This document shows positions 7,294 to 36,569 of a stretch of 64,000 bases of DNA, piece by piece. Position 1 is the stretch's first letter. The number at the start of each line of letters is the position of its first letter. Made by a program: the position numbers and the translations under genes. The notes beneath the pieces are model-generated. The model was not told the DNA's origin, searched no databases, and was given only the letters and a program-made list of their open reading frames with translations. The stretch is from Pelagomonas calceolata. Its lineage: Eukaryota. The DNA is taken from NCBI GenBank assembly GCA_918797485.1, contig CAKKNE010000001.1, positions 4,650,001 to 4,714,000 on the forward strand, written 5' to 3'.

Positions 7294-7629
7294 TCTTGTA
7301 ATCTTGTGTTCGGTCGTAGTTCGTAGTGCGCGTTCCCGGCGACTTCCCGCGTCGCTAGAGCTCCTCGCTAGAACCCGTCTCAGATACACTAGGGAAGCTT
7401 GTTCGGGCCTTCGAGGAGCCTTCTGACGCCTCGGCTCATCCTCGCCCGATGCGGCTTCGAGGCCTGCTTCGAGACTGTGCTGAGAGCCATTGCAAAACTC
7501 AATCCACAGATCATTGCTCACTCAACGACTGGGTAGAGAACAACGTCCACGCGCACGAACTAGTCCATAACGACGATATTCACAAGCGTATAGCTCGCTC
7601 GACAAAAGTTACAGCCACAAGCACTGAAA

Positions 7630-11047: not shown

Positions 11048-14000
11048 ATGGCCGAGGGGGAGGCCCCAGCGCCGGCGGCGCTCATCGAGCCCGACGAGCG
11101 CTCGACGGTCTCGTTATGGTCCAGCACCATGCGCCAGGCCAATAAGGTCGACGAGATCGCATTAGTACTAAAGAAGATGACCGCGCTCGAGACGAAGCTC
11201 GCCGATCTGGAAGGGGAGCGCATACGAGTGCGGGAACGCCAAGACGTATTGCCGAGCGGTCCTTTACAAATACACGGTGCCCAGCTGGACTGCGCCAAGG
11301 AGGTGCGCGTTTTAACCGGTCCAGTAGTAGGCCGCGTCGACAGCCGGTCTGCCGTGATTTTACTCGAGACTGATGTCTCTGCGAAATTAGAGGTTGTGGT
11401 GTGTCTGCAGGCGGAGGGGAAGGAAGTGCGCAGGCAACCCTTGAAACTTAAGAGTAGACGACCGGGTATAGTAGTACTGACACAGTTACAAGATGACACG
11501 CGGTATCAAATTTTATTTAGTGGCATCCACCGACAGGACGCGCAAGAGCGCATCGCCGAGTTCGTCACATTGAAAAATAGTGTGAGAGCAGGTGCCTTGT
11601 TCCAGGGCATCGAGCAGGGCGACGAGCGCGACAACTACGACGAAGCGCGGTTCGTGGCCGTGGCTAGAGATAGACCTTCTCTGGTAAAACCGGGCGAGTT
11701 TAATCGCTGGGACACGATCTACGAACGCGTGTCCCAGAAAGATTTACCGCCCGTGAATTTTATGTTGCATGTGGGAGGCCAGGTGGACCTTCAAAGTTCT
11801 TTTGAGGAGGCCTGGACGCTGCTGAAACGAGGAACGATAGGAGAGGACGACCAGAAAGCTTTAGAAGATAAAGCTCGAGAGATTCTGAGGAGAGCCTACA
11901 GGCATGCCTGGAACCTGCCACATGTCAGGGAGACGTTAGCGTCGTGTCCGCACTTTATGTTGTGTGGCGAGGGTGACGTGTACCCCAAGTTCCTCACGAA
12001 TAAGGACCTGGGGGATGACGTCGGCGCTTGTGCGTTGAGGTGCGCGCGGCGCGTGTACTGGGAGTATCAACGGCAGCTCTGGGACCCGCGCGTGCACGAA
12101 GTCATAGAGTATGAAGAATCATACGGGAAGACCAAGGAGAACATCGAAAAAGCGAAAGAAGCCGTGAAGACCGCAGAAAAGGCCGCGCTGGCCGCGGTCA
12201 AGGACTGGGAGCGTTATATGAGTGAGAAGGCGGAGATTCGGAGCCAGGTCGCGCACTTGGATGGTGTGGAGTTAAGGAGAGAATTAAGGAAGGTCAAGTG
12301 CCCGGTAGTGGATGGGAGGACCGACGCGCAACTACGAGAAGACTACCTCAAACACAAGGCTTTGGGCCTGGACGAGTCGAAGCCGTTGCCGACGTGGCCG
12401 CCCCACGAGGCCCACCAGGCGGTCGATGCGGCGCGCGCCGCCGGCGCCGCGAAGGATGCCGGTGCTTCCGATAGTTTCAGCTACGGCATGGCGGCGCCGG
12501 CGCCCGCGGCGAAGACGGTGTCGTTCCAAGAGGATGGCTTGGATGACGATTCGGAAGAGGAAGAATCGGAGGAAGAGGAGGACGAGGACCTCGTGAAACG
12601 GGATCCTGATGATACGAAGGAACGAAGGTACGAAGCCCGAGTCGCGGAGTTAGGTGCCGCGGTGAACGAGGCCGAACAAACAGCAAAGGACATGCAGGAG
12701 CGCTTCGAGAACTGGGGCAACGCGGACACGCCGAACGCCGGGAAGGACAACGAGACGGCCCTACATATTTTGGGGCGGATCGGCGTGCTTTTGTTGGATA
12801 CGAGGTGGTCTCAAATTAGCGACAGAGGCGCCCAGCAGAAGGACGAACCTTTAGTAGCGGAGGACACCTGGAAGCAGCTCGAGCATTTGCTGTTGTACGG
12901 TACCTATGCCGGTTCGATAACAGCATTAGTGGTGTGCACGGACGAGCCGCCCGTGGACCCTTATGCTAGAGACGACCTCCCGGAGGAGTCCTATGCGAGG
13001 TTGGAGGCCATTTCATCTCGGTGGGCGAGGCACGAGAGTGATCGCGAGGCGTTCCTGGGGCTCATGTTTTGATCTGTGTGGAAATCAAATTTACGGCGCG
13101 TTCGTCCTGAATCGCCATGTCGACCTCCACGCCATTGACGCAACACCTGCTCGATGGCGTGGCGATGCTAGTTCCTCACCGCTCGACCGAGTGCACCCGA
13201 CACACTGGCTGATTTCCACACAGGTTTAGATGGCTCCAGGGCATGCAGAATAGATCATTGGTCGTGATCTGTGGCGGCGACTTGTGCGGAGGCGTCGAGA
13301 CGCAGGTTGAAGACCAGCAGCAGGCCGAGGAACGGTCCAAGCGGCAGGAGGACGCCAAGCCGAAGCTCGACGAGTGGGGCCAGCCCATTCAAGAAGGTCT
13401 GAAACCGGTAAGCGAGGCCTCGAACAACGACAAGTTCTACCGCCAGCTCGTGTGCGGCGGCGTCGCCGGCTCCAGTACTAAGAACGTCAATCATCTCATG
13501 GGCGACGGCGGCGAGCTCGAGTTCAATTCTAAAGATGATCGCGGCAAGCGGCAATTACTGAAACTCCAGTACGACCACCGTCGGTTAATCCCGTCGGAGC
13601 ACTGCGCCTACGTCGAGGGGTTAGTAAGGGCGCCCGTCGACGCGACGGAGCCCGTGGACATCCGGGCGGACATCTGTTCGCTGTTTTTTGGGGGCGTCAA
13701 GGTCACCGTCGGACCTGTCATTGGTCTCGTGACGGAATCCACAGCCATCATTTTGTTGGAGGTCGAGTGGGAGGCGCCGGTCGGGTGCGTGGTCACGGAC
13801 GCGCTGTCGGGCGAAAGGATGACGATTTTGAACCACCTCCCCAAACTAAGGCCGCACGCGTTCCGGGTCGAAGGTTTAAAACCGCACCGCCACTACCACG
13901 TCCGCTTCGACGGCGTCGAGGATCCTGAAAAAAGACGCGGCTCCTTCACGACGTGTGCTTCCTTAGCGGCGCCGCGGCGGCCGCAGCCCGGCGACGACGT

Positions 14001-18704: not shown

Positions 18705-18757
18705 GGGTTTTTCTATCGCACAGTGTAAATTTGCCGGATTCGCTGCGACCAGCTTTC
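18705..18757 (+). promoter_or_regulatory. Candidate upstream Pol III promoter of permuted tRNA-Ser
   Basis: GGGTTTTT-N10-GTGTAAAT-N19-CAGCTTTC; same blocks and near-identical spacing upstream of the permuted tRNA-Leu(CAG). Confidence 0.5.
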
Positions 18758-18778: not shown

Positions 18779-18947
18779 ATCGAGGCGTCTTTACATGCGT
18801 CATCACCATTAGCGTCAGCTGCGCAGATCTATCTCCTACGGAGAAAGAAGCGTCTGTTCGAGTCCTGTCCGTGTCGAAACATATTGAGACACGGTGTCCG
18901 AGAAGTGGTGAAACCCACCCGGTCTTGGTTAAGGAGATCGACTAGAA
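18779..18947 (+). tRNA. Circularly permuted tRNA-Ser(AGA) with three ectopic introns
   Basis: 3' half 18779-18876, spacer 18877-18887, 5' half 18888-18947; introns 18783-18807, 18827-18855, 18903-18925. Reassembles to GACACGG TG TCCGAGTGGTTAAGGA G ATCGA CTAGAAA TCGAT TAGCGTCAGCTGC GCAGG TTCGAGT CCTGT CCGTGTC G. Confidence 0.9.
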
Positions 18948-27720: not shown

Positions 27721-29597
27721 TTTGCTGTTTATATATTGCGTGTTCGTCGCGGCGACGGCGTGCGGGGGTTTCGAACGTCTGTCGGCACGCGACGCGCACG
27801 TCGTCACGCCATCGCCGCTTCAACGACGTCTAAACGGGCTCCCAAATTCAAGATTCATCATAGTCGTCCACTGAGACCATTTCTGTACGAATAGCGCCCA
27901 GGAATGCAGCAGCAAGAAACTAGCGTGTGACATACTAGCAAATCCAAAGATACGCTCCGATAGCGTCCAAAGAATGACCGAAAATCAGAATACATTCCTG
28001 TTGATCGCCGCGACCAAAGAGTTTAGAATAGAGGCCCGGGAACATACCCTCGCGCCTCCCGGAAGGCACCGCCCGCGACATTCGCGGACGAGTCTTACGG
28101 CTTGCCAAAGTACACCAGCGATTGACGCCGCAATCTACCGTCCAGATGGGACATTATATCAACTCCAGCCCAGTTTTCATACAAGTTCGACGGAACCGGA
28201 GCCGACGGCCCGCGCTCGGAGGGCGGGAAAAGAATTCTACTAGACAACTCCCGAGTTTATGTTCGTTTCCTTCCGTTTGTTGGGGGTAGAGTCCATCCAG
28301 CCCGCCTCAACATTTACTGAGCCCAGTCTCTTGATCCGTACGAGCCGCGGGATTCGACGACTTCGGTACCGCGCGTTTGTGCATAGACAAGCCTAGAACC
28401 CAAAACCGCGAGTATCAGCGACGACACCATCCAGATGGACCATGACGCCGTTGTTCTATTCACAATCGACCGACTTGCCCGTTCTCCGCGGACGACGGTG
28501 CGTACGCGGGGCACTGGAAAGGCCCCAGACCCGTGAGTTATGAAATAAAATTGCGTTTCAGGCGCTTCGGTTGAGGGACGGGCCAGCTAACCGGGCTGAG
28601 CGGCTACTACATGCTAGAGACCCAAAGATGCTCGGCGCGGGTCGTCGGTCTCGCGAGCCCACAATCTGGCTATATTTGGCTCCAGACCCGGACCTGCGGC
28701 CATCAGCCCGTGTACCATCACCATGGACCATGAAACGATCATTTGTTCTATGATTGACCGACTTGCGCGAGGTCCAGATCAAGATGTTCACGTCCCGAGC
28801 GTGGTCGGCCCAAAGTACCCTTCTCATGGTGTAGATGTCATATACTTGTAGTTGACTATCGGTGGGGTAGTATGGGGTCCGACGGGACCGCTACGGCGAC
28901 TACTGGGTGCCCTCGGGTAATTGACGTTTTTGACGGGAACGGGGCGCCATCGGGCCCAAATTGCACACTTTTTTCGGATGTAGATCGGCTCGCGGACTCC
29001 CTCCGGGATAGGTCTGGGGTCGGGTGGTCGCCGAAGCCGCATGCGCCGGTGCTTGGGGCTCTCCAGAGAGCTCTGGATCCAAAACCTTGGCATTTTGTGC
29101 AATAGCTATTCAGCTGGAGATGCATCTTGGCAGATGTATCTGAAGCGGGAAGCGGCCGCGCATGCGGCGTAGGCGATTGCACATGTATTGTACCGACCCC
29201 GAACGGCCTCCGAGGGACCTCGGGACCACGAATCGACAGGAATCCACCGACGCGCCCGCCATGGCGGCGTCGTCAATTTCGCGAATTAAAAAAATTAATT
29301 TTTTCGGCCCCCAGGAAGTGTCCCATTGATCTCTTTGGACCACGAGCGAACCGAACGCTCCTCAAACAGCTGCAATGCGCGTTCCGAGTGCATGCTAGTG
29401 TCTTACATCGCTATCCAGGCTCCCTGCGCAATCGAGCTTGACTGCCAGTATTCACCATCAAACCGCCCTCCGCGGGCGTACAGAGCCATGCGAGCAACCC
29501 CTGTGAACGCTCCGCTCCCTCATTGCATCTGTATCGGCATTCTGATTGCAGGTGACACCACAAGCCACTGCACACTGCACAGACAGCACCTCCTGTG

Positions 29598-31163
29598 ATG
29601 GCATCATTAGACGCCCTCGCCGCGACAGCAGGAGGCGCGGCACCAGCAGACGCCATCGCCGCGACAGCAGGACACGCGGCGATCGAAGCGGCCAAAACCG
29701 GCGACCTCCCAAAACTAGCCGCCGCGGGCGACGGGGCGCTGCGCGCCGTCGACGCCTACGGCTCGAACGCGCTGCACTGGGCCGCCGGCCGCGGCCACCT
29801 GGCTTTGGTAAGGCACCTCGTGCAGGACCGGGGGATGGACGCTTCATTTCCAGCAAATCCGCCGCGGCGCCGCGACGCGCCGACGACGCGCGGCCGGACC
29901 GCGCTCCACTACGCGGCGCGCAACGGCCACCTTGACGTCGTCGAGTATCTGGTAAAGCGGCCCGACGTCGACGCGGACGCGCGCGCCGAGGGCGGCGTCT
30001 CGCCCGCGCAATTAGCCTGCTGGCGCAACGAATTTGACGTTGTGAAACGCCTCGTCGCCGCCGGCGTCGACGTTTCACAAAAAAACGACGCCGGCTGCGG
30101 CTTCGCGCACTGGCTCGCCTGCGCGCCGCGGGACGCGGGCGACCTCCGGCCGCTCGCGGCGTGGCTCGCCGCGCGGCTCGGTCCTACTGCTCTTGCCGTC
30201 GAGCCGAACGGCCACGGCCACACGTGCCTGCACAAGGCCGCCTTCGCGGGCCACTTTGACTTGTGCGCGTATCTGGTCTCGTGCTTTTTTGCGGCGTCCT
30301 GTTGTTCCTTCGCGTTGTGCATCGCGCGTTGTCTGCCGTCGTCGCGTCGACGGCGTGCTGACTGTGTACGTGTTCGTCGCGTCTAAAGCGTACCGATGGG
30401 GACGCGTCCGCCTCGACGCTGTCTCCTCTACGCCGTTGACTGATGTACACGTCCGCCTCAACGCCGTCGCCGCGCCACGTCCAGAGAACGGGCGCCACGC
30501 GCCACGCCATCGACGCGCCACGCACGCAGCCTCGGCGCCGACGACGCCGTGCTGGACGCGACGGGCGGCCGCGCCTCGGACGACGCCGACGCGGCCGGGC
30601 ACCCCGAGCTGCGCGACTTTTTGCGGCGGCACGCGGACCGCGCGAAAGATAAAGCGAGTCGCACGGCGTTGGGTTTGCCCGCGGCCGGCGCGCTCGACGC
30701 GGTTCACGTAAGGGACGCGTTTCGGGAAAAAGCGCTCGCGACGCACCCCGACCGGGCGGTCGGCGACGACGCCGCCTTCGTGGAGGCGCGGGCGGCGCGC
30801 GATTACTTGAGCGGCGTGGTTGATGAGGACGCTCGAGTGACACGGCGCCTGCCGTTACTGATCGAGGCGCTCGGGCCCGCACCGGGCGAGGCGCGCGCTC
30901 ATGTGTTCGCGGCGCGCGTCGTCGCCGCGATTCTAGAACACGGCGACGGCGGCGTCGCGCTCGCACACCTCCCGAAAAAGTTCCGTCTTTTATGGGGCCG
31001 CGAGTTCGGCGAGGCGGCGGCGGCGGCCGGCTTTCCGCAGCGGGGCGTGAAGCGCGTTCTCTGGCGGCTGAAGTACGCCGTCCGTATTTCGAAGGGAGAG
31101 CCGCCGATGGCTTTTTCGCGGGTGTTGTGTTCGGAGGTGCGGGCGCGGCTCGAGGCTTCTTGA
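29598..31163 (+). CDS. Ankyrin-repeat protein with J-domain-like region and possible LOTUS/OST-HTH-like C-terminus
   Basis: Ankyrin repeats (GSNALHWAA, GRTALHYAA, GHTCLHKAA); intron 30281-30529; then VRDAFREKALATHPDR (HPD). Confidence 0.72.
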
Positions 31164-31239
31164 CTGGCGCGATGTTTGTGTGGTGGTGGTGTTTTTGTGC
31201 TTAACGATTGTCACTTGACCCGTGATCTTGCCTTGGCGC

Positions 31240-31291
31240 GGGTTTTTTGTCGGTCCCGTGTAAATCGCAAGGAATAAGGGAATCAGCTCTC
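31240..31291 (+). promoter_or_regulatory. Candidate upstream Pol III promoter of permuted tRNA-Leu(CAG)
   Basis: GGGTTTTT-N10-GTGTAAAT-N18-CAGCTCTC; matches 18705-18757. Confidence 0.5.
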
Positions 31292-31305
31292 GAGACGCTT
31301 GGAAG

Positions 31306-31443
31306 TACTGGTCTTTTCGAAGGCGTGGGTTCGAGTTCTCTAGTCGGAACGATCCTAACCCCACGGTCCGTAGATACATCGCGGATCTGAAACCTGAACA
31401 TCAAGGTTGAGTTTGCCGAGCGGTCTAAGGCGCCAGTTTCAGG
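31306..31443 (+). tRNA. Circularly permuted tRNA-Leu(CAG) with two ectopic introns
   Basis: 3' half 31306-31372, spacer 31373-31380, 5' half 31381-31443; introns 31334-31356 and 31390-31414. Reassembles to GCGGATC TG GCCGAGCGGTCTAAGGC G CCAGT TTCAGGT ACTGG TCTTTTCGAAGGC GTGGG TTCGAAC CCCAC GGTCCGT A. Confidence 0.9.
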
Positions 31444-31453
31444 TAGATGTCTC

Positions 31454-31461
31454 TTTTTTTT
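31454..31461 (+). terminator. Pol III T-run terminator
   Basis: T8 right after the trailer AGATGTCTC. Confidence 0.75.
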
Positions 31462-31790
31462 GTTTTTTTTGTTTTGTTTTTTTTGTGCCCCGGCCGCGCC
31501 CCCGTCTTTTTGAGCCACCCCGAGGGCCGCGCGCGCGCCGTCGGCGAACTAGTCTCCTATTATCTCCACCAGGGGTCTCTAGGCGCTCCAGGAGAAGCCT
31601 CCGTACTCGTATCGAGCGCACCAAGCGACCCCGGGCAGAAAGCTCCTCGGATCTCAGTTCCAGGTGTCCTCGCAGTTGACCGCGGCGCACGCACGCGGTG
31701 AACGAGAAAGGCTGCGGCAAAGCAGCTGAATCGGCTCAGGACATCCGTCGCGCCGCCCTGAGAAAGCAGCGCCGCGTATCAACGAGCACA

Positions 31791-33279
31791 ATGCGACTAC
31801 GAACCCAATGCTTACTACTCTGCGCAACAAACGCAGCCGCGCTGCAGCTCCAACCAGCCCCGCAGCTCATCTTACTACTCTGCGCAACAAACGCAGCCGC
31901 GCTGCAGCTCCAACCAGCCCCGCAGCTCATCAAAAGACCACACCAGCAGCCGCGCGTCATCCTCACGACCGAACAAGTGGAAAAGCTCGAGCGCAGCGTC
32001 GCCGCGGCGCTGCCGGCCGTCGGGCAGTGGGCCGCGTTCGGCGGCGTCGTGTCTGCGTTCACTGGTTTCCTCTGGGGATGGGCCGGCCTGCCCGCGGCAG
32101 GGCTCTACGCGTCGTCCGTCGCGAGCGGGACGGCGTGGGCCCTCGCCTGGGATCACATCATGCCGGGCGGCTCGTACGCGGCGTCCTTTTTATATCGTCT
32201 CCACGCCATCGACGCGTCTGCTCGATGGCGTCTGCTCGATGGCGTGCCGGTGACGCGATGTCAGCTCGCTGGACCTCCACGCTATCGACGCGACGTCAGC
32301 TCGACTCACTGGTAACACACGCAGGTGGCCGGCGAGTCGCCGAGATGATGGGCGGCACGACGGTCGGCGTGCCGTGTAGCGTTCGCGACGCCGTGGCAAA
32401 GACCGCCGCCGCCGCGAAAATGCCCGCGCCGGCCGCGTACATCGTGCCGACCAAGGAACCGAACGCGTTTGCCGCGGGCCGCGGCCGCGACCGCGTCGTG
32501 GCCGTGACGCAAGGGCTCGTGGATCTCCTCGACCGGCGCAGACCCGTGCCGAAATCTCGACGACGTACCTCGCGTCGATAGCGTGCCTGCGCGTCGAGGC
32601 CAAGCAGCCACACCACGCCATCGCCACGCCGCGCAAGTCGCGAAGAAAGGACACCGCGACGCAGGCGGGAGCTCGAGGCCGTCGTGGCCCACGAAGTCGG
32701 CCACCTCAAGCACGGCGACACGGGCCGCGCCGCACAAGCCGCGGCCATGCTCTCGGGCCTCTCGGCCGCGAAACGCGCCGGCGACCGCATGGTAGCGAAC
32801 AAGCGAAAAGAGAAATCGGACGCGTCCGTCGCCGCGGCCCTCGCCGCCGCGGGCGCCGCCTCGTCGGCCGCGGGGCTGCTGCTCCGTCTCGCATGAATCC
32901 GCGCGCAAAATCACGCGGGCGATGGCGTGGAGGTGGGAGCCTCGCCGAAGACTAAAAAATCGCAACGCAGGCGGGAAGCCGGCGCGACGAGTTCGCCGCG
33001 GACGCCGTCGCCGCGCAGTTCGTCGACGCCGGCGCGCTGGCGGGCGCGCTCAAGAAGATCGAGGCCGCGGGCGCGCCGCGGGACAAGCTGCACGCGCGGG
33101 CGGGCGCCTACGCGCACGCGTACTTTAGCAACGACGACGGGCCGTCGCGCTGGCTCCGGACGCACCCGACCGTCGAGGCTCGGATCAACGCTCTAAAATC
33201 GGGCGCGCCGCCCGGACGCGCGCCGCCGCCGGCCTGGGCGCGGTTCGCCGCCGAGGCCGTCGCGGAGTCGGTCTCGTAA
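31791..33279 (+). CDS. Peptidase M48 (HtpX-like) with three GC-AG introns
   Basis: EPNAFAAG, VAVTQGL, ELEAVVAHEVGH, SRRDEFAAD, RTHPTVEARI; introns ~32167-32324, 32536-32664, 32891-32970. Confidence 0.85.
31811..31930 (+). repeat. Perfect 60-bp tandem duplication in signal-peptide region
   Basis: LLLCATNAAALQLQPAPQLI encoded twice by identical DNA. Confidence 0.95.
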
Positions 33280-33544
33280 ATTTCCCTACTTTTCTCTTCT
33301 GCGGCGACGCAGCGGCGTGGCGCGTCGATTGCGTGCGACCTCAACGCACCGCCCCGACATCACTCCACGCCGTCGCCGCGGCCGGGAAGCGACGCGAAAG
33401 CAGCACGCCGTCGCCGTGATGCGCAGGACGCCGCGCGCAATCCGCTCTGTCACGGAAACGACTCCTAGTCCACCAGATCTGAGGATACCACGGCACCGCC
33501 GCGACGCCGCCGACGCGATCAACAGAAAGTGAACAAAAGTAAAC

Positions 33545-34549
33545 TTACCTCCTCCGCCCCATCCGCGGGTGCCACGGCGACGCGATCGTCCGCATGAGTT
33601 CCTTCCGCAAGTCCAACATGTCGCCCAGGACGCGGCCGTGCTGCTCGCTCTCGGCCATGGTGCTCACCTCGGGGCCGCCCACGAGGTCCGACTCGAGCGT
33701 GATTAGCTCCTTCTTGAGCTTCTCTCTCCGCCTGCGTGTATCGAGAGCGTCGACGCGGCGTAGCGCGGTGACGGCGGGCGGTGCACGCCATCGCCGCGTG
33801 GAGGTCCGCGGGGCGTGGCGTACGTCTCGCGCAAACGAAAAACACAAGACGCGGGAAACGAACCGGGTCCGGACCTTCTTCGACAGGAGGTTCGACGAGG
33901 GCGTGGGAAACAGGTACGTGCCGTTCGGCGCGTAGGGCGCGCGCCGCACGTGGCCGTGCGAGGGCAGCCACGGCGTCCGGAGCGTCCGGCGCGTCCGCTC
34001 GACGCGGCGCCTTCGCCGCATCTCGGCGAGCGAGACCTGGTTCGGCGCCACGACGGGGTTCATCATGCTCAGCTCCGCGGCGGGCGGCGCCTCGGCGACG
34101 GGCCCCGGCCGCGCGTTGATGTCGACGCCGTGGACGAGGACCTTCGCGGGCGCGTTGAAGCGCCACTCGTAGTCGAACTTGCGCGGCGGCGGCATGGCCC
34201 AGATCTTCGACGGGTCCGGCACGTCCTCCGGCTCGTCGTCGCTCGACAGGACGCTGCCGGCCGTGCCGGGCGTGAAGCGCACGCTCTTGTTGGACTTGGG
34301 CCGCCGCTCGCCCTTGGACAGCGGCGGCAGCAGCGCGGACCGCGGCTTCAGCGGCGACCGGCGCTTCGGCGGCGACGGCGCGGCGCGCAGCGGCGACTTG
34401 AGCGGCGACTGGGGCCCCGGCGTCGAGACGTGGTGCTCGGTCGACGCGGCGCCCACGTACTCGTCGAGGGTGAGGCCCTCGTCGACGCCGCAAAAGGCCA
34501 GCGCCGGCGCGCCGCGGCGCTTGCCGCCCTTGCCGCGGCGGCCGCCCAT
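33545..34549 (-). CDS. Hypothetical Pro/Ser-rich protein, probable intron ~33732-33870
   Basis: ORF from MGGRRGKGGK with GC3 bias; introner-like segment ending ACACGCAG; exact structure uncertain. Confidence 0.55.
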   Translation of the reverse strand: MGGRRGKGGKRRGAPALAFCGVDEGLTLDEYVGAASTEHHVSTPGPQSPLKSPLRAAPSPPKRRSPLKPRSALLPPLSKGERRPKSNKSVRFTPGTAGSVLSSDDEPEDVPDPSKIWAMPPPRKFDYEWRFNAPAKVLVHGVDINARPGPVAEAPPAAELSMMNPVVAPNQVSLAEMRRRRRVERTRRTLRTPWLPSHGHVRRAPYAPNGTYLFPTPSSNLLSKKVRTRFVSRVLCFSFARDVRHAPRTSTRRWRAPPAVTALRRVDALDTRRRREKLKKELITLESDLVGGPEVSTMAESEQHGRVLGDMLDLRKELMRTIASPWHPRMGRRR

Positions 34550-34819
34550 CGTCTTGGGGTTTGCTGCTGTGCGTGGGCTGCCTCGCTCTCGCACCTGCAG
34601 CGCACTCTTGAGGCGCTGTTTGAGCAGGCGGGGGGTCCGCCGCCCTACGCGTGCGCGCTCGATAGTAGACCTCGTCGGAGCGCTCTCTGCCTCAATTCGA
34701 GAGCCCACGAAATTCGGACGAAGCGCGCTGCGCGATGAGGCTCAGCTCGACCAATGTGGCCCAAACTCCGGCAGGATGGTCGTCTCGTCGTCGCAGACAA
34801 AAAAAAATCAAAAAAAGAG

Positions 34820-34922
34820 TACAGTCTGCGGGATTCGAACCCGCGCCCGAAGACCAGTGCCTTAAACTGGCGCCTTAGACCACTCCGTTGGGACGTGGTT
34901 TCACACGTCTGGCCAAAACTGC
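34820..34922 (-). tRNA. tRNA-Leu(AAG) with 25-nt ectopic BHB intron at 12/13
   Basis: GCAGTTT TG GCC[intron 34886-34910]GAGTGGTCTAAGGC G CCAGT TTAAGGC ACTGG TCTTCGGGC GCGGG TTCGAAT CCCGC AGACTGT A, followed by T-runs. Confidence 0.93.
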
Positions 34923-35210
34923 ACTCAGGGGTCTTGCGACTCCTATTTTTTCGTAAGGACACCTGATTTCGCCGGCGGCAAGCTATCTAAATTGTTCATT
35001 TGCAAACCCCTAAATTTTTTGATTTGGCCCGCTAATTGCCCGATTTGACCGCAGCCAGGTCAATTCTCGACCTTCGAGCCCGAAACTCGCAAAAACCCAA
35101 ACTACGCAGCCCACAGCCACACCTCGCGAAGCCGGCTGCGAAACGAGCGCCGTCACGCGGAGATAAACGCAAAAAACGCGACCCTGGCTAGCAGGCCGCC
35201 TTGCGGCAGC

Positions 35211-36569
35211 ATGGCAGCAATCACCACTCGAAAAATCGAAGCCGTAGTCCACACGAAAATCGACGCCGCACGCCGAAGAACAGTCGCCAAAACAATAGCG
35301 CTAGACCGGCTGTCCGCGTTCCTCGGCGACGCCGCGCCGGCGCTCCAACCGCCCGCGCTGCCGTGGGTGGACCTGGAGATCCGCCCGGCGTTCCGCGAGC
35401 CCGTCGAGATCTGCGTCGACTGCCCCGAGAAGGCGACAAATGGCCCGGCGTTCAAGGTCCACTTGCCGCGTCTTGTGCGGCGCCTTCGTGGCTGGTCTCG
35501 TCTGCTCGATGGCGTCATCGGGACGACGTCGCGGCGATGGCGTCATCGGGACGACGTCGCGGCGATGGCGTCTAGCTCTCGTGATTCGTCTCGCGCCCTT
35601 GATGGCGACGCGTCGACTGGCGTTTCTCTGGACGTCATGTTTTGGATGAGAGAGTCACAGAGTCACGAAGTCGCAAAAACACAGGAGGCACGAAAAAAAC
35701 AGGAAAAAAACACACAGGTCCTGGTCCTGCTCGAGCCCGAGGAGGTCTCGCGGGCGGCGCAAAGAGCCAAACCAAACTACTTCGACCTCGTCCTCGGCCA
35801 CGACGCGGCCGCCGTCGCGGCGGCGCGCGGAAAAGCTTCGGCGCCCTTCGCGCACGGCGGCACGTGGGTGCCGCGCGACGTCTGGGCAGCGCCGCCGCGC
35901 AGCAAAGCGCCGAAGGCCTCGCTCGTCTGCGGCGCCCTGCCGCGTCCAAAGTACTACTCAGAGGGCCGCGGCCGTCCACGCCCGTGAGTCGCGGTGATGG
36001 CGTGGTGGCGTGGGGGTGGAGCCGCGGCCGTCCGACGCAAAAAACACGCAGGCGACAAAAAACTAACGCGCGGCCACCGTATCAGAAGAGCGGTCTGGGA
36101 CGCCGCCGCCGCGGACGCTAGAATCGTGCGCTTCGCCTCGGAACATTCAAAGCTACCACGTGATAAGGGAGTCCGCGTCCTCGCGGCCGCGCCCGAGGCC
36201 AAGGCTGGTAGTGTAGCGCCCTTCGCCGTCCACGTCGCTATTGAAAATGTGCGGCGCGCGGGCTACTTCACGGAGAAGCTCCTGGACTGCTTTTTATTGA
36301 GAACTGTACCCGTCTATTGGGGCTGCCCGGACCTCGCGGCGCACGGTTTTGATGTTGACGGCGTCGTGTTCATTGATGATGGCGGCGACGTCGCGGCCGT
36401 GGCGCGCGCCGCCGTCGCGGCCGTTGGGCGCGCCCTCGATGCGCCGCCTCCCGCCGCGGCGATCGAGCGCAACTACGCGCGCGCCCAGGACTTCCTCGAC
36501 CTCGAGGGCCGCCTCGTCGCCAGTATCGACGCGGCGCTCATAGCTAGAGAGCGTGATCTTTGTGTGTAA
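35211..36569 (+). CDS. Glycosyltransferase family 10 (alpha-1,3-fucosyltransferase-like)
   Basis: HVAIEN...YFTEKLLDCFLLRTVPVYWG; introns 35457-35717 (GT-AG) and 35932-36051 (GC-AG). Confidence 0.75.
35507..35572 (+). repeat. 28-bp tandem repeat inside an intron
   Basis: CGATGGCGTCATCGGGACGACGTCGCGG, about 2.4 copies. Confidence 0.85.

Follow-up and report, generated by a model that had tools for sequence, protein, structure and literature searches.

Disrupted tRNA genes of the type considered here have already been described in red algae. Cyanidioschyzon merolae is recorded as having 42 introns in 27 tRNA genes, five in the D stem, together with 11 permuted genes (PMC3728597, PMC3978253). 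In this alga D-stem splicing was shown by RT-PCR (Soma et al. 2013, PMC3728597), and ectopic introns leave before the 37/38 junction is joined (PMC3728597). In Chondrus crispus, splicing of D- and T-loop introns has been shown (PlantRNA 2.0, 10.1101/2021.12.21.473619). Permuted tRNA genes are also listed for prasinophytes, the Bigelowiella nucleomorph and Thermofilum (PMC3978253), and they occur in Auxenochlorella. The tRNA introns of archaea (Thermoproteales, Asgard) are described as forming bulge-helix-bulge (BHB) motifs, as short, as lying at many positions and as repeatedly gained (10.64898/2026.10.13.758758). According to a 2026 review, the origin of the atypical algal tRNA introns is undecided between deep ancestry, convergence and transfer; the available text of that review, in which red algae, nucleomorphs and O. 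tauri are named, contains neither "pelago" nor "Aureococcus" (PMC13578239). We found no report of disrupted tRNA genes of this type for a stramenopile nucleus in the openly accessible literature. Maruyama et al. (2010) reportedly surveyed algal genomes. The PlantRNA 2.0 species set includes two heterokonts, which may bear on novelty (10.1101/2021.12.21.473619).

The tRNA genes reported here lie in a 64,000-nt stretch of DNA, which we refer to as the window, and their disruption is of the Cyanidioschyzon/Chondrus kind. As described for C. merolae, there are ectopic BHB introns (one of them in the D stem), genes with several introns, permuted genes that have a 37/38 junction, relaxed 37/38 motifs, T-run terminators and an upstream promoter, here a candidate; a permuted tRNA-Leu(CAG) is also listed there. 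Unlike in C. merolae, the host nucleus is that of a stramenopile, and close relatives that keep the genes intact are available for comparison. The permuted genes of the window contain two and three introns, whereas all 34 permuted genes tabulated in PMC3978253 (Table 1) contain none or one. The helix of one intron (Ser 41/42) is order-dependent, whereas most C. merolae introns are described as folding independently (PMC3728597). The likeness to Chondrus lies in nuclear tRNA genes that are not permuted yet have introns elsewhere than in the anticodon loop, introns whose splicing is verified in that alga; Chondrus, however, uses two fixed positions (20/21 and 58/59) and has no permuted genes, whereas here six positions are used in three genes. 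With the permuted genes of prasinophytes, Auxenochlorella and the Bigelowiella nucleomorph, as far as these are tabulated, those of the window share the Type II (37/38) arrangement, the predominance of class II tRNAs (Ser, Leu) and a compact algal genome. Those genes differ in being intronless bar one and in belonging to the green lineage or being green-derived. Geometry, shortness and the multiplicity of positions resemble the archaeal BHB introns as described, but the gene here is eukaryotic. What is new is the pelagophyte lineage and an intact syntenic orthologue; the initial annotation of this DNA noted neither of these, nor the precedent in red algae.

The window is pelagophyte (stramenopile) nuclear DNA and is probably Pelagomonas-like. 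Among named organisms, the lipoate synthase encoded in it is closest to those of the pelagophytes Aureococcus (72–77%), Pelagophyceae CCMP2097 (70%) and Aureoumbra (66%). The window is gene-dense with a GC content of 62.6%, and the eukaryotic domains it encodes include PAM68, a plastid domain, and that of a ferlin-like C2 protein. The published Pelagomonas calceolata genome is given as 32.4 Mb in 6 chromosomes with 63.6% GC, and the word "tRNA" is absent from the main text of that paper as accessed (PMC9481584).

The tRNA-Leu(AAG) gene runs from 34922 to 34820 on the minus strand; it is nuclear and collinear, and a 25-nt intron interrupts it at 12/13. The minus-strand sequence is exactly that given in the initial annotation. 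Exon 1 (34911–34922, minus strand) comprises positions 1–12, with 7–10 forming one side of the BHB central helix and 11–12 lying in the 5′ bulge. In the D-stem intron (34886–34910, minus strand), a 6-bp hairpin with a 6-nt loop is followed by the four nucleotides that complete the central helix and then by two from the 3′ bulge. Exon 2 (34820–34885, minus strand) comprises positions 13–73 and has the anticodon AAG, a short variable arm, an intact B box and the discriminator A73; the A box is split by the intron. The insert sits between C12 and G13 in a single junction register. The two halves of the gene are in normal order, so it is not circularly permuted, and the canonical 37/38 intron is absent, the anticodon loop being uninterrupted and the D arm interrupted. 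No CCA is encoded, and runs of T7 and T9 lie 3′ of the gene (34799–34816, minus strand) as a likely RNA polymerase III terminator; both features are those of a eukaryotic-type gene. From the raw sequence ARAGORN reports only a broken, truncated 70-nt Leu(aag), and it folds a complete Leu(aag) cloverleaf once 34910–34886 is removed; its relaxed intron modes return 333 calls, mostly spurious. Rfam gives 0 tRNA matches in the window at gathering scores and, by E-value, only a partial match of the tmRNA model on the T arm. The insert at 12/13 is very probably a real ectopic BHB intron.

The fold bears out the initial description of a D-arm BHB intron in a non-permuted Leu(AAG) gene. The central helix (TTGG/CCAA) has 4/4 Watson-Crick pairs, the intron helix has 6/6, the bulges are of 3 nt on both sides, and the cloverleaf is restored on removal of the intron. 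In the exon-side helix three pairs are possible, two of which are G-U, and the same bases are wanted by the acceptor stem. Locally, the BHB form is the free minimum free energy (MFE) structure at −10.2 kcal/mol. The MFE structure of the whole precursor contains the central helix, the 5′ bulge and the intron helix, while the exon-side helix is not formed and its bases are paired in the acceptor stem. The centroid of the whole precursor is without the central helix, and in the MFE structure of a 43-nt segment the 3′ bulge is of 2 nt rather than 3 nt. The stability of this segment is ordinary (z = −0.54, with 49 of 200 shuffles equally stable). A 4/4 central helix together with an intron stem of at least 6 pairs, G-U allowed, arose in 34 of 2,000,000 shuffles of the intron. 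It is the register of the BHB that is improbable, not its stability.

Relatives of the gene were sought with a motif over positions 13–37, scanned against viral contigs (3 loci) and metagenome contigs (at least 141 stretches); the motif is blind to genes split inside 13–37. The scan gave 132 listed loci with 151 matches and 114 distinct Leu contexts. Among the contexts listed, 112 of the 114 were uninterrupted on both sides of the motif, the exceptions being the loci L005, which is permuted, and L126. The latter has, near its position 300 and within a tRNA cluster, a Leu(AAG) gene whose intron is of the ordinary kind, in the anticodon loop. The intron-bearing Leu(AAG) allele of the window was not among the matches listed, which offer no covariation for the 12/13 intron, and a gapped pattern for it matched neither a viral contig nor a prokaryote genome. 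The spliced Leu(AAG) sequence is nearly identical to intronless metagenome genes, with 77/78 nt in both L024 and L077 and 76/78 nt in L038. The exon boundaries are thereby fixed independently of the BHB.

The locus L038 (11,163 nt) consists of blocks collinear with, and in the same orientation as, window positions 19.1–38.1 kb. Its intact Leu(AAG) gene has the same orientation and flanks as that of the window and is thus syntenic, without the 12/13 intron. One L038 protein is 83–87% identical to its window orthologue and 44–46% identical to those of CCMP2097 and Chrysophaeum, which makes L038 a close relative. It is likely that the Leu 12/13 intron was gained recently, and independently of the cases in red and green algae, in the lineage of the window, a parsimony call against precise loss in which L077 and L024 enter without taxonomic placement. 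L038 also carries, at 7389–7472 (plus strand) and about 490 nt from its Leu(AAG), a different intact Leu(CAG) isodecoder, and no tRNA was called in it at the site matching the permuted Leu(CAG) of the window.

That permuted tRNA-Leu(CAG) gene (31306–31443, plus strand) has its circular permutation at 37/38 and introns at 57/58 and 9/10. The 3′ half (positions 38–73; 31306–31372, plus strand), with a 23-nt intron at 57/58 (31334–31356), is followed by a spacer of 8 nt (31373–31380, plus strand), the sequence of which is the same in L005, and by the 5′ half (positions 1–37; 31381–31443, plus strand) with a 25-nt intron at 9/10 (31390–31414). The permutation junction has a 4/4 central helix, the trailer pairs with the leader, and a T-run starts at 31454. 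L083 and L092 carry intact, unpermuted genes with which the reconstructed tRNA is identical over 82/82 nt. Both of its flanks mark L005 as orthologous to the Leu(CAG) locus (75% identity across about 1.1 kb); it has the same permutation, with the 57/58 intron precisely missing. Its 9/10 intron has the same stem and 3/4 central pairs, and differs in the loop and 3′ end. The intact Leu(CAG) genes of L083 and L092, at 257–338 in each, lie about 190 nt from a flank in common with window positions 31306–31627 and are inverted relative to it. Over about 100 nt the shared flank of L083 is 91% identical to L005 versus 78% to the window. With the flank closer to L005 and the gene inverted, L083 and L092 are only possible orthologues of the window locus, the permutation of Leu(CAG) may have run in either direction, and intact Leu(CAG) paralogues may exist in this group. 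On the minus strand at about 430–460 of L092, 5′ of the intact gene, is a 15-nt stretch like a decayed Leu D arm; it may have been left by a tandem copy, or the likeness may be fortuitous.

The second permuted gene, tRNA-Ser(AGA) (18779–18947, plus strand), is likewise permuted at 37/38 and has three introns. Two of these, at 41/42 (18783–18807) and 52/53 (18827–18855), lie in the 3′ half (positions 38–73; 18779–18876, plus strand), which is separated by an 11-nt spacer from the 5′ half (positions 1–37; 18888–18947, plus strand) with the third at 15/16 (18903–18925); a T-run follows from 18955. ARAGORN folds the reconstruction into a complete cloverleaf for Ser(aga). At the 37/38 junction the central helix has only 2/4 pairs, with flanking helices of 7/7 and 4/4 in register, and the gene has four cutting sites in total. 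The 41/42 intron depends on two bases of the 5′ leader for its central helix and is therefore predicted to be removed before the 37/38 junction is joined.

In both permuted genes the 3′ half precedes the 5′ half, with a short spacer and a single terminator, and leader and trailer pair into a BHB-like motif at the junction; ARAGORN misses both genes. Neither has an intact A or B box by pattern match. An upstream element, GGGTTTTT-N10-GTGTAAAT, is found before Leu(CAG) (31240–31265, plus strand) and, with equal spacing, before Ser(AGA) (18705–18730, plus strand); we regard it as a candidate external Pol III promoter. The element recurs with the same spacing in L005 at 319–344, in 1 of the 132 listed loci; the pattern was derived from the two window sites, which makes its count there circular and L005 the sole outside check. 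In L083 and L092 the first half of the element lies before the intact gene as well. Leu(AAG) is not preceded by the element.

All three tRNA genes found in the window are thus disrupted, with introns at 12/13 in Leu(AAG), 9/10 and 57/58 in Leu(CAG), and 15/16, 41/42 and 52/53 in Ser(AGA). This agrees with the three disrupted genes and six intron positions noted initially, as established by reconstruction and by a scan for T-runs. The scan, 5′ of all 113 T-runs, gave five candidate places, namely the three tRNA genes and two non-tRNAs; it tolerates no more than one insertion in the T arm, and more heavily split genes may escape it. The two other candidates, at 13517 and 48926, were on inspection not tRNAs. 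Over the six ectopic introns 22/24 central-helix pairs are formed (G-U counted). This total was reached by 0 of 200,000 shuffles in the fixed register, by 1 in the best equivalent register and by 24 in the best of three registers. Registers shifted by +1 were rejected for the 57/58 and 41/42 introns, where the central helix falls to 1/4 versus 4/4. The BHB is the local free MFE structure for two of the six introns (Leu 12/13 and Ser 52/53) and lies 3–8 kcal/mol above it for the remaining four, in a fold that omitted the exon-side helix. All six introns and the 9/10 intron of L005 have A as their first base and are 23–29 nt long, and four of the six window introns end in C followed by a pyrimidine.

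From these structures a processing pathway can be proposed for Leu(AAG). RNA polymerase III would make a precursor of about 105 nt, presumably aided by the B box and upstream sequence. Positions 7–10 are predicted by folding to pair with the 3′ end of the intron, so that neither the D arm nor the mature L shape could form until splicing. By analogy with C. merolae and Chondrus, TSEN2 and TSEN34 would cut both bulges, and a tRNA ligase would join C12 to G13. The same machinery would process the permuted neighbours, with the ectopic introns leaving first and the 37/38 site being resolved last, via a circular intermediate. The 12/13 intron is probably removed by the tRNA splicing endonuclease reading the local BHB shape. 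The ruler mechanism of this enzyme is described as reading the mature tRNA domain (PMC10485636). Because the D arm cannot form before splicing, a ruler of this kind should not apply at 12/13. At the canonical site, however, the weak Ser 37/38 helix (2/4) suggests position-aided recognition, which favours a dual mode. We consider an enzyme of two modes most likely, with the BHB as its guide at ectopic sites and position as an aid at 37/38. The earlier suggestion of an endonuclease guided by the BHB rather than by a ruler therefore fits the ectopic sites, with their 22/24 pairs, but is too strong for the Ser 37/38 junction, where the dual mode fits better. The endonuclease domain was found in 0 of the 25 window ORFs scanned.

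That the disrupted genes are an assembly artefact is scarcely credible. A contig of run X4, from another study, spans 33863–34991 including the Leu 12/13 intron, contigs of DNA run X2 cover the Ser(AGA) and Leu(CAG) genes, and both show 0 differences; moreover, 14 of 20 runs contain at least half of the sampled words of 30500–35600. The hairpin might instead lie in a dead copy of Leu(AAG), with an intronless paralogue being the functional gene. Indeed, the A box is broken, and odd insertions among synonymous eukaryotic tRNA genes are usually read as pseudogenes in the treatment given by PMC4090602. That the Pelagomonas-like L083 and L092 have intact Leu(CAG) genes whose mature sequence equals that of the permuted one makes intact paralogues possible. 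The X4 contig holds unspliced Leu(AAG); the run is guessed to be RNA, and either read-through RNA or DNA is possible. In polyA runs X21–X24 of the same organism, sampled at 6–12% of each, depth is zero over 34818–34948, as expected for polyA, and no tRNA joint is present in the sampled reads, where the circular joint of Leu(CAG) is unlisted and depth is low. No tRNA-intron joint is among the best 15 of 219 joints listed, and the tRNA genes are not covered by any piece listed for X12 (organism B) or for the metatranscriptome X15. Against a dead copy, the exons are undamaged and match intact genes at 76–77 of 78 nt, and the BHB register, so rare among shuffles, recurs at six sites. Furthermore, L005 keeps exons, spacer and BHB arms although the contig overall is only 75% identical. 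We consider a dead copy very improbable.

A real intron could also be the work of a remodelled, archaea-like endonuclease (for example one without SEN15 or SEN54) that reads only the BHB and no longer has the ruler. Such an enzyme would suit the six ectopic positions, whose central helices are good, and the C. merolae report states that no SEN15 was found in that alga (PMC3728597). A pure BHB reader should nevertheless manage poorly with the Ser 37/38 junction, which has only 2/4 pairs in the exact register. Also, Xenopus TSEN is described as cleaving a BHB placed in mRNA in vitro (PMC10485636), so that no special enzyme is strictly required and the ordinary one may suffice. Remodelling is accordingly possible but on the unlikely side, and we prefer the dual-mode enzyme. 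As to the age of the introns, a disrupted state inherited from early eukaryotes or from a red-algal endosymbiont nucleus, and lost in relatives, would accord with the ectopic introns known in red algae and a red-derived nucleomorph (part of PMC13578239). The closeness of the unpermuted L083 flank to the permuted L005 also makes loss of permutation possible. However, Leu(AAG) sits in a host-syntenic context and is near-identical to the intact genes of relatives, both L038 tRNA genes are intact, as are 112 of the 114 listed contexts, and the presence of the 57/58 intron differs between close orthologues. An old origin is therefore improbable, and recent gain is the preferred reading. Finally, the introns may have been copied between tRNA genes, as in Thermoproteales. 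The initial annotation had pointed to the TGAAAC loop as a hint of such spread. The Leu 12/13 and Ser 15/16 introns do share this hexamer as their loop, but it occurs 20 times in the window. The two introns have an 8-nt exact stretch in common around the loop, their stem-loop-stem pattern is found at only these two window sites, and all six introns agree in length range and initial A. The family-wise P for the Leu/Ser likeness over the 15 window pairs is nevertheless 0.079 against a plain shuffle and 0.15 against a hairpin-preserving null, and the lowest uncorrected P among the other 14 pairs is 0.23. The hint of spread is not upheld by these values, and copying is doubtful.

The recent gain that we prefer for the Leu(AAG) intron may form part of a wider process. 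A Pelagomonas-like lineage could be in a recent, ongoing wave of tRNA fragmentation, independent of those in red and green algae, in which an upstream Pol III element freed genes from their A and B boxes, BHB introns invaded and genes were permuted in place; we hold the case for and against this scenario to be evenly balanced. If it is correct, intact, partly split and heavily split orthologues should exist among close relatives and allow stepwise tracing on a tree, and the permuted Ser gene with four ordered cuts would exceed any permuted gene in the PMC3978253 table as available. The passages on the known cases describe no close relative with an intact gene. Here, the intact syntenic L038 and the intermediate L005, which is permuted with one intron and not two, make recent gain testable. 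The host is an abundant, cultured ocean alga, and the trait is extended to a stramenopile nucleus. Standard annotation misses such genes, ARAGORN reporting one broken gene of the three and Rfam none, so that in this lineage the counts of tRNA genes and any analysis of codon supply are probably wrong.

Two further observations concern the surroundings of these genes. At about 27950–29400 the window contains a high-copy repeat, for which the summed contig depth in X2 is several hundred times that of neighbouring bins. At about 32199–32304 there are many loose read and contig ends, inside a 155-nt skipped stretch with GG..CA ends (plus strand). The skipped stretch may belong with repeated non-GT introns of the introner type, which it resembles.
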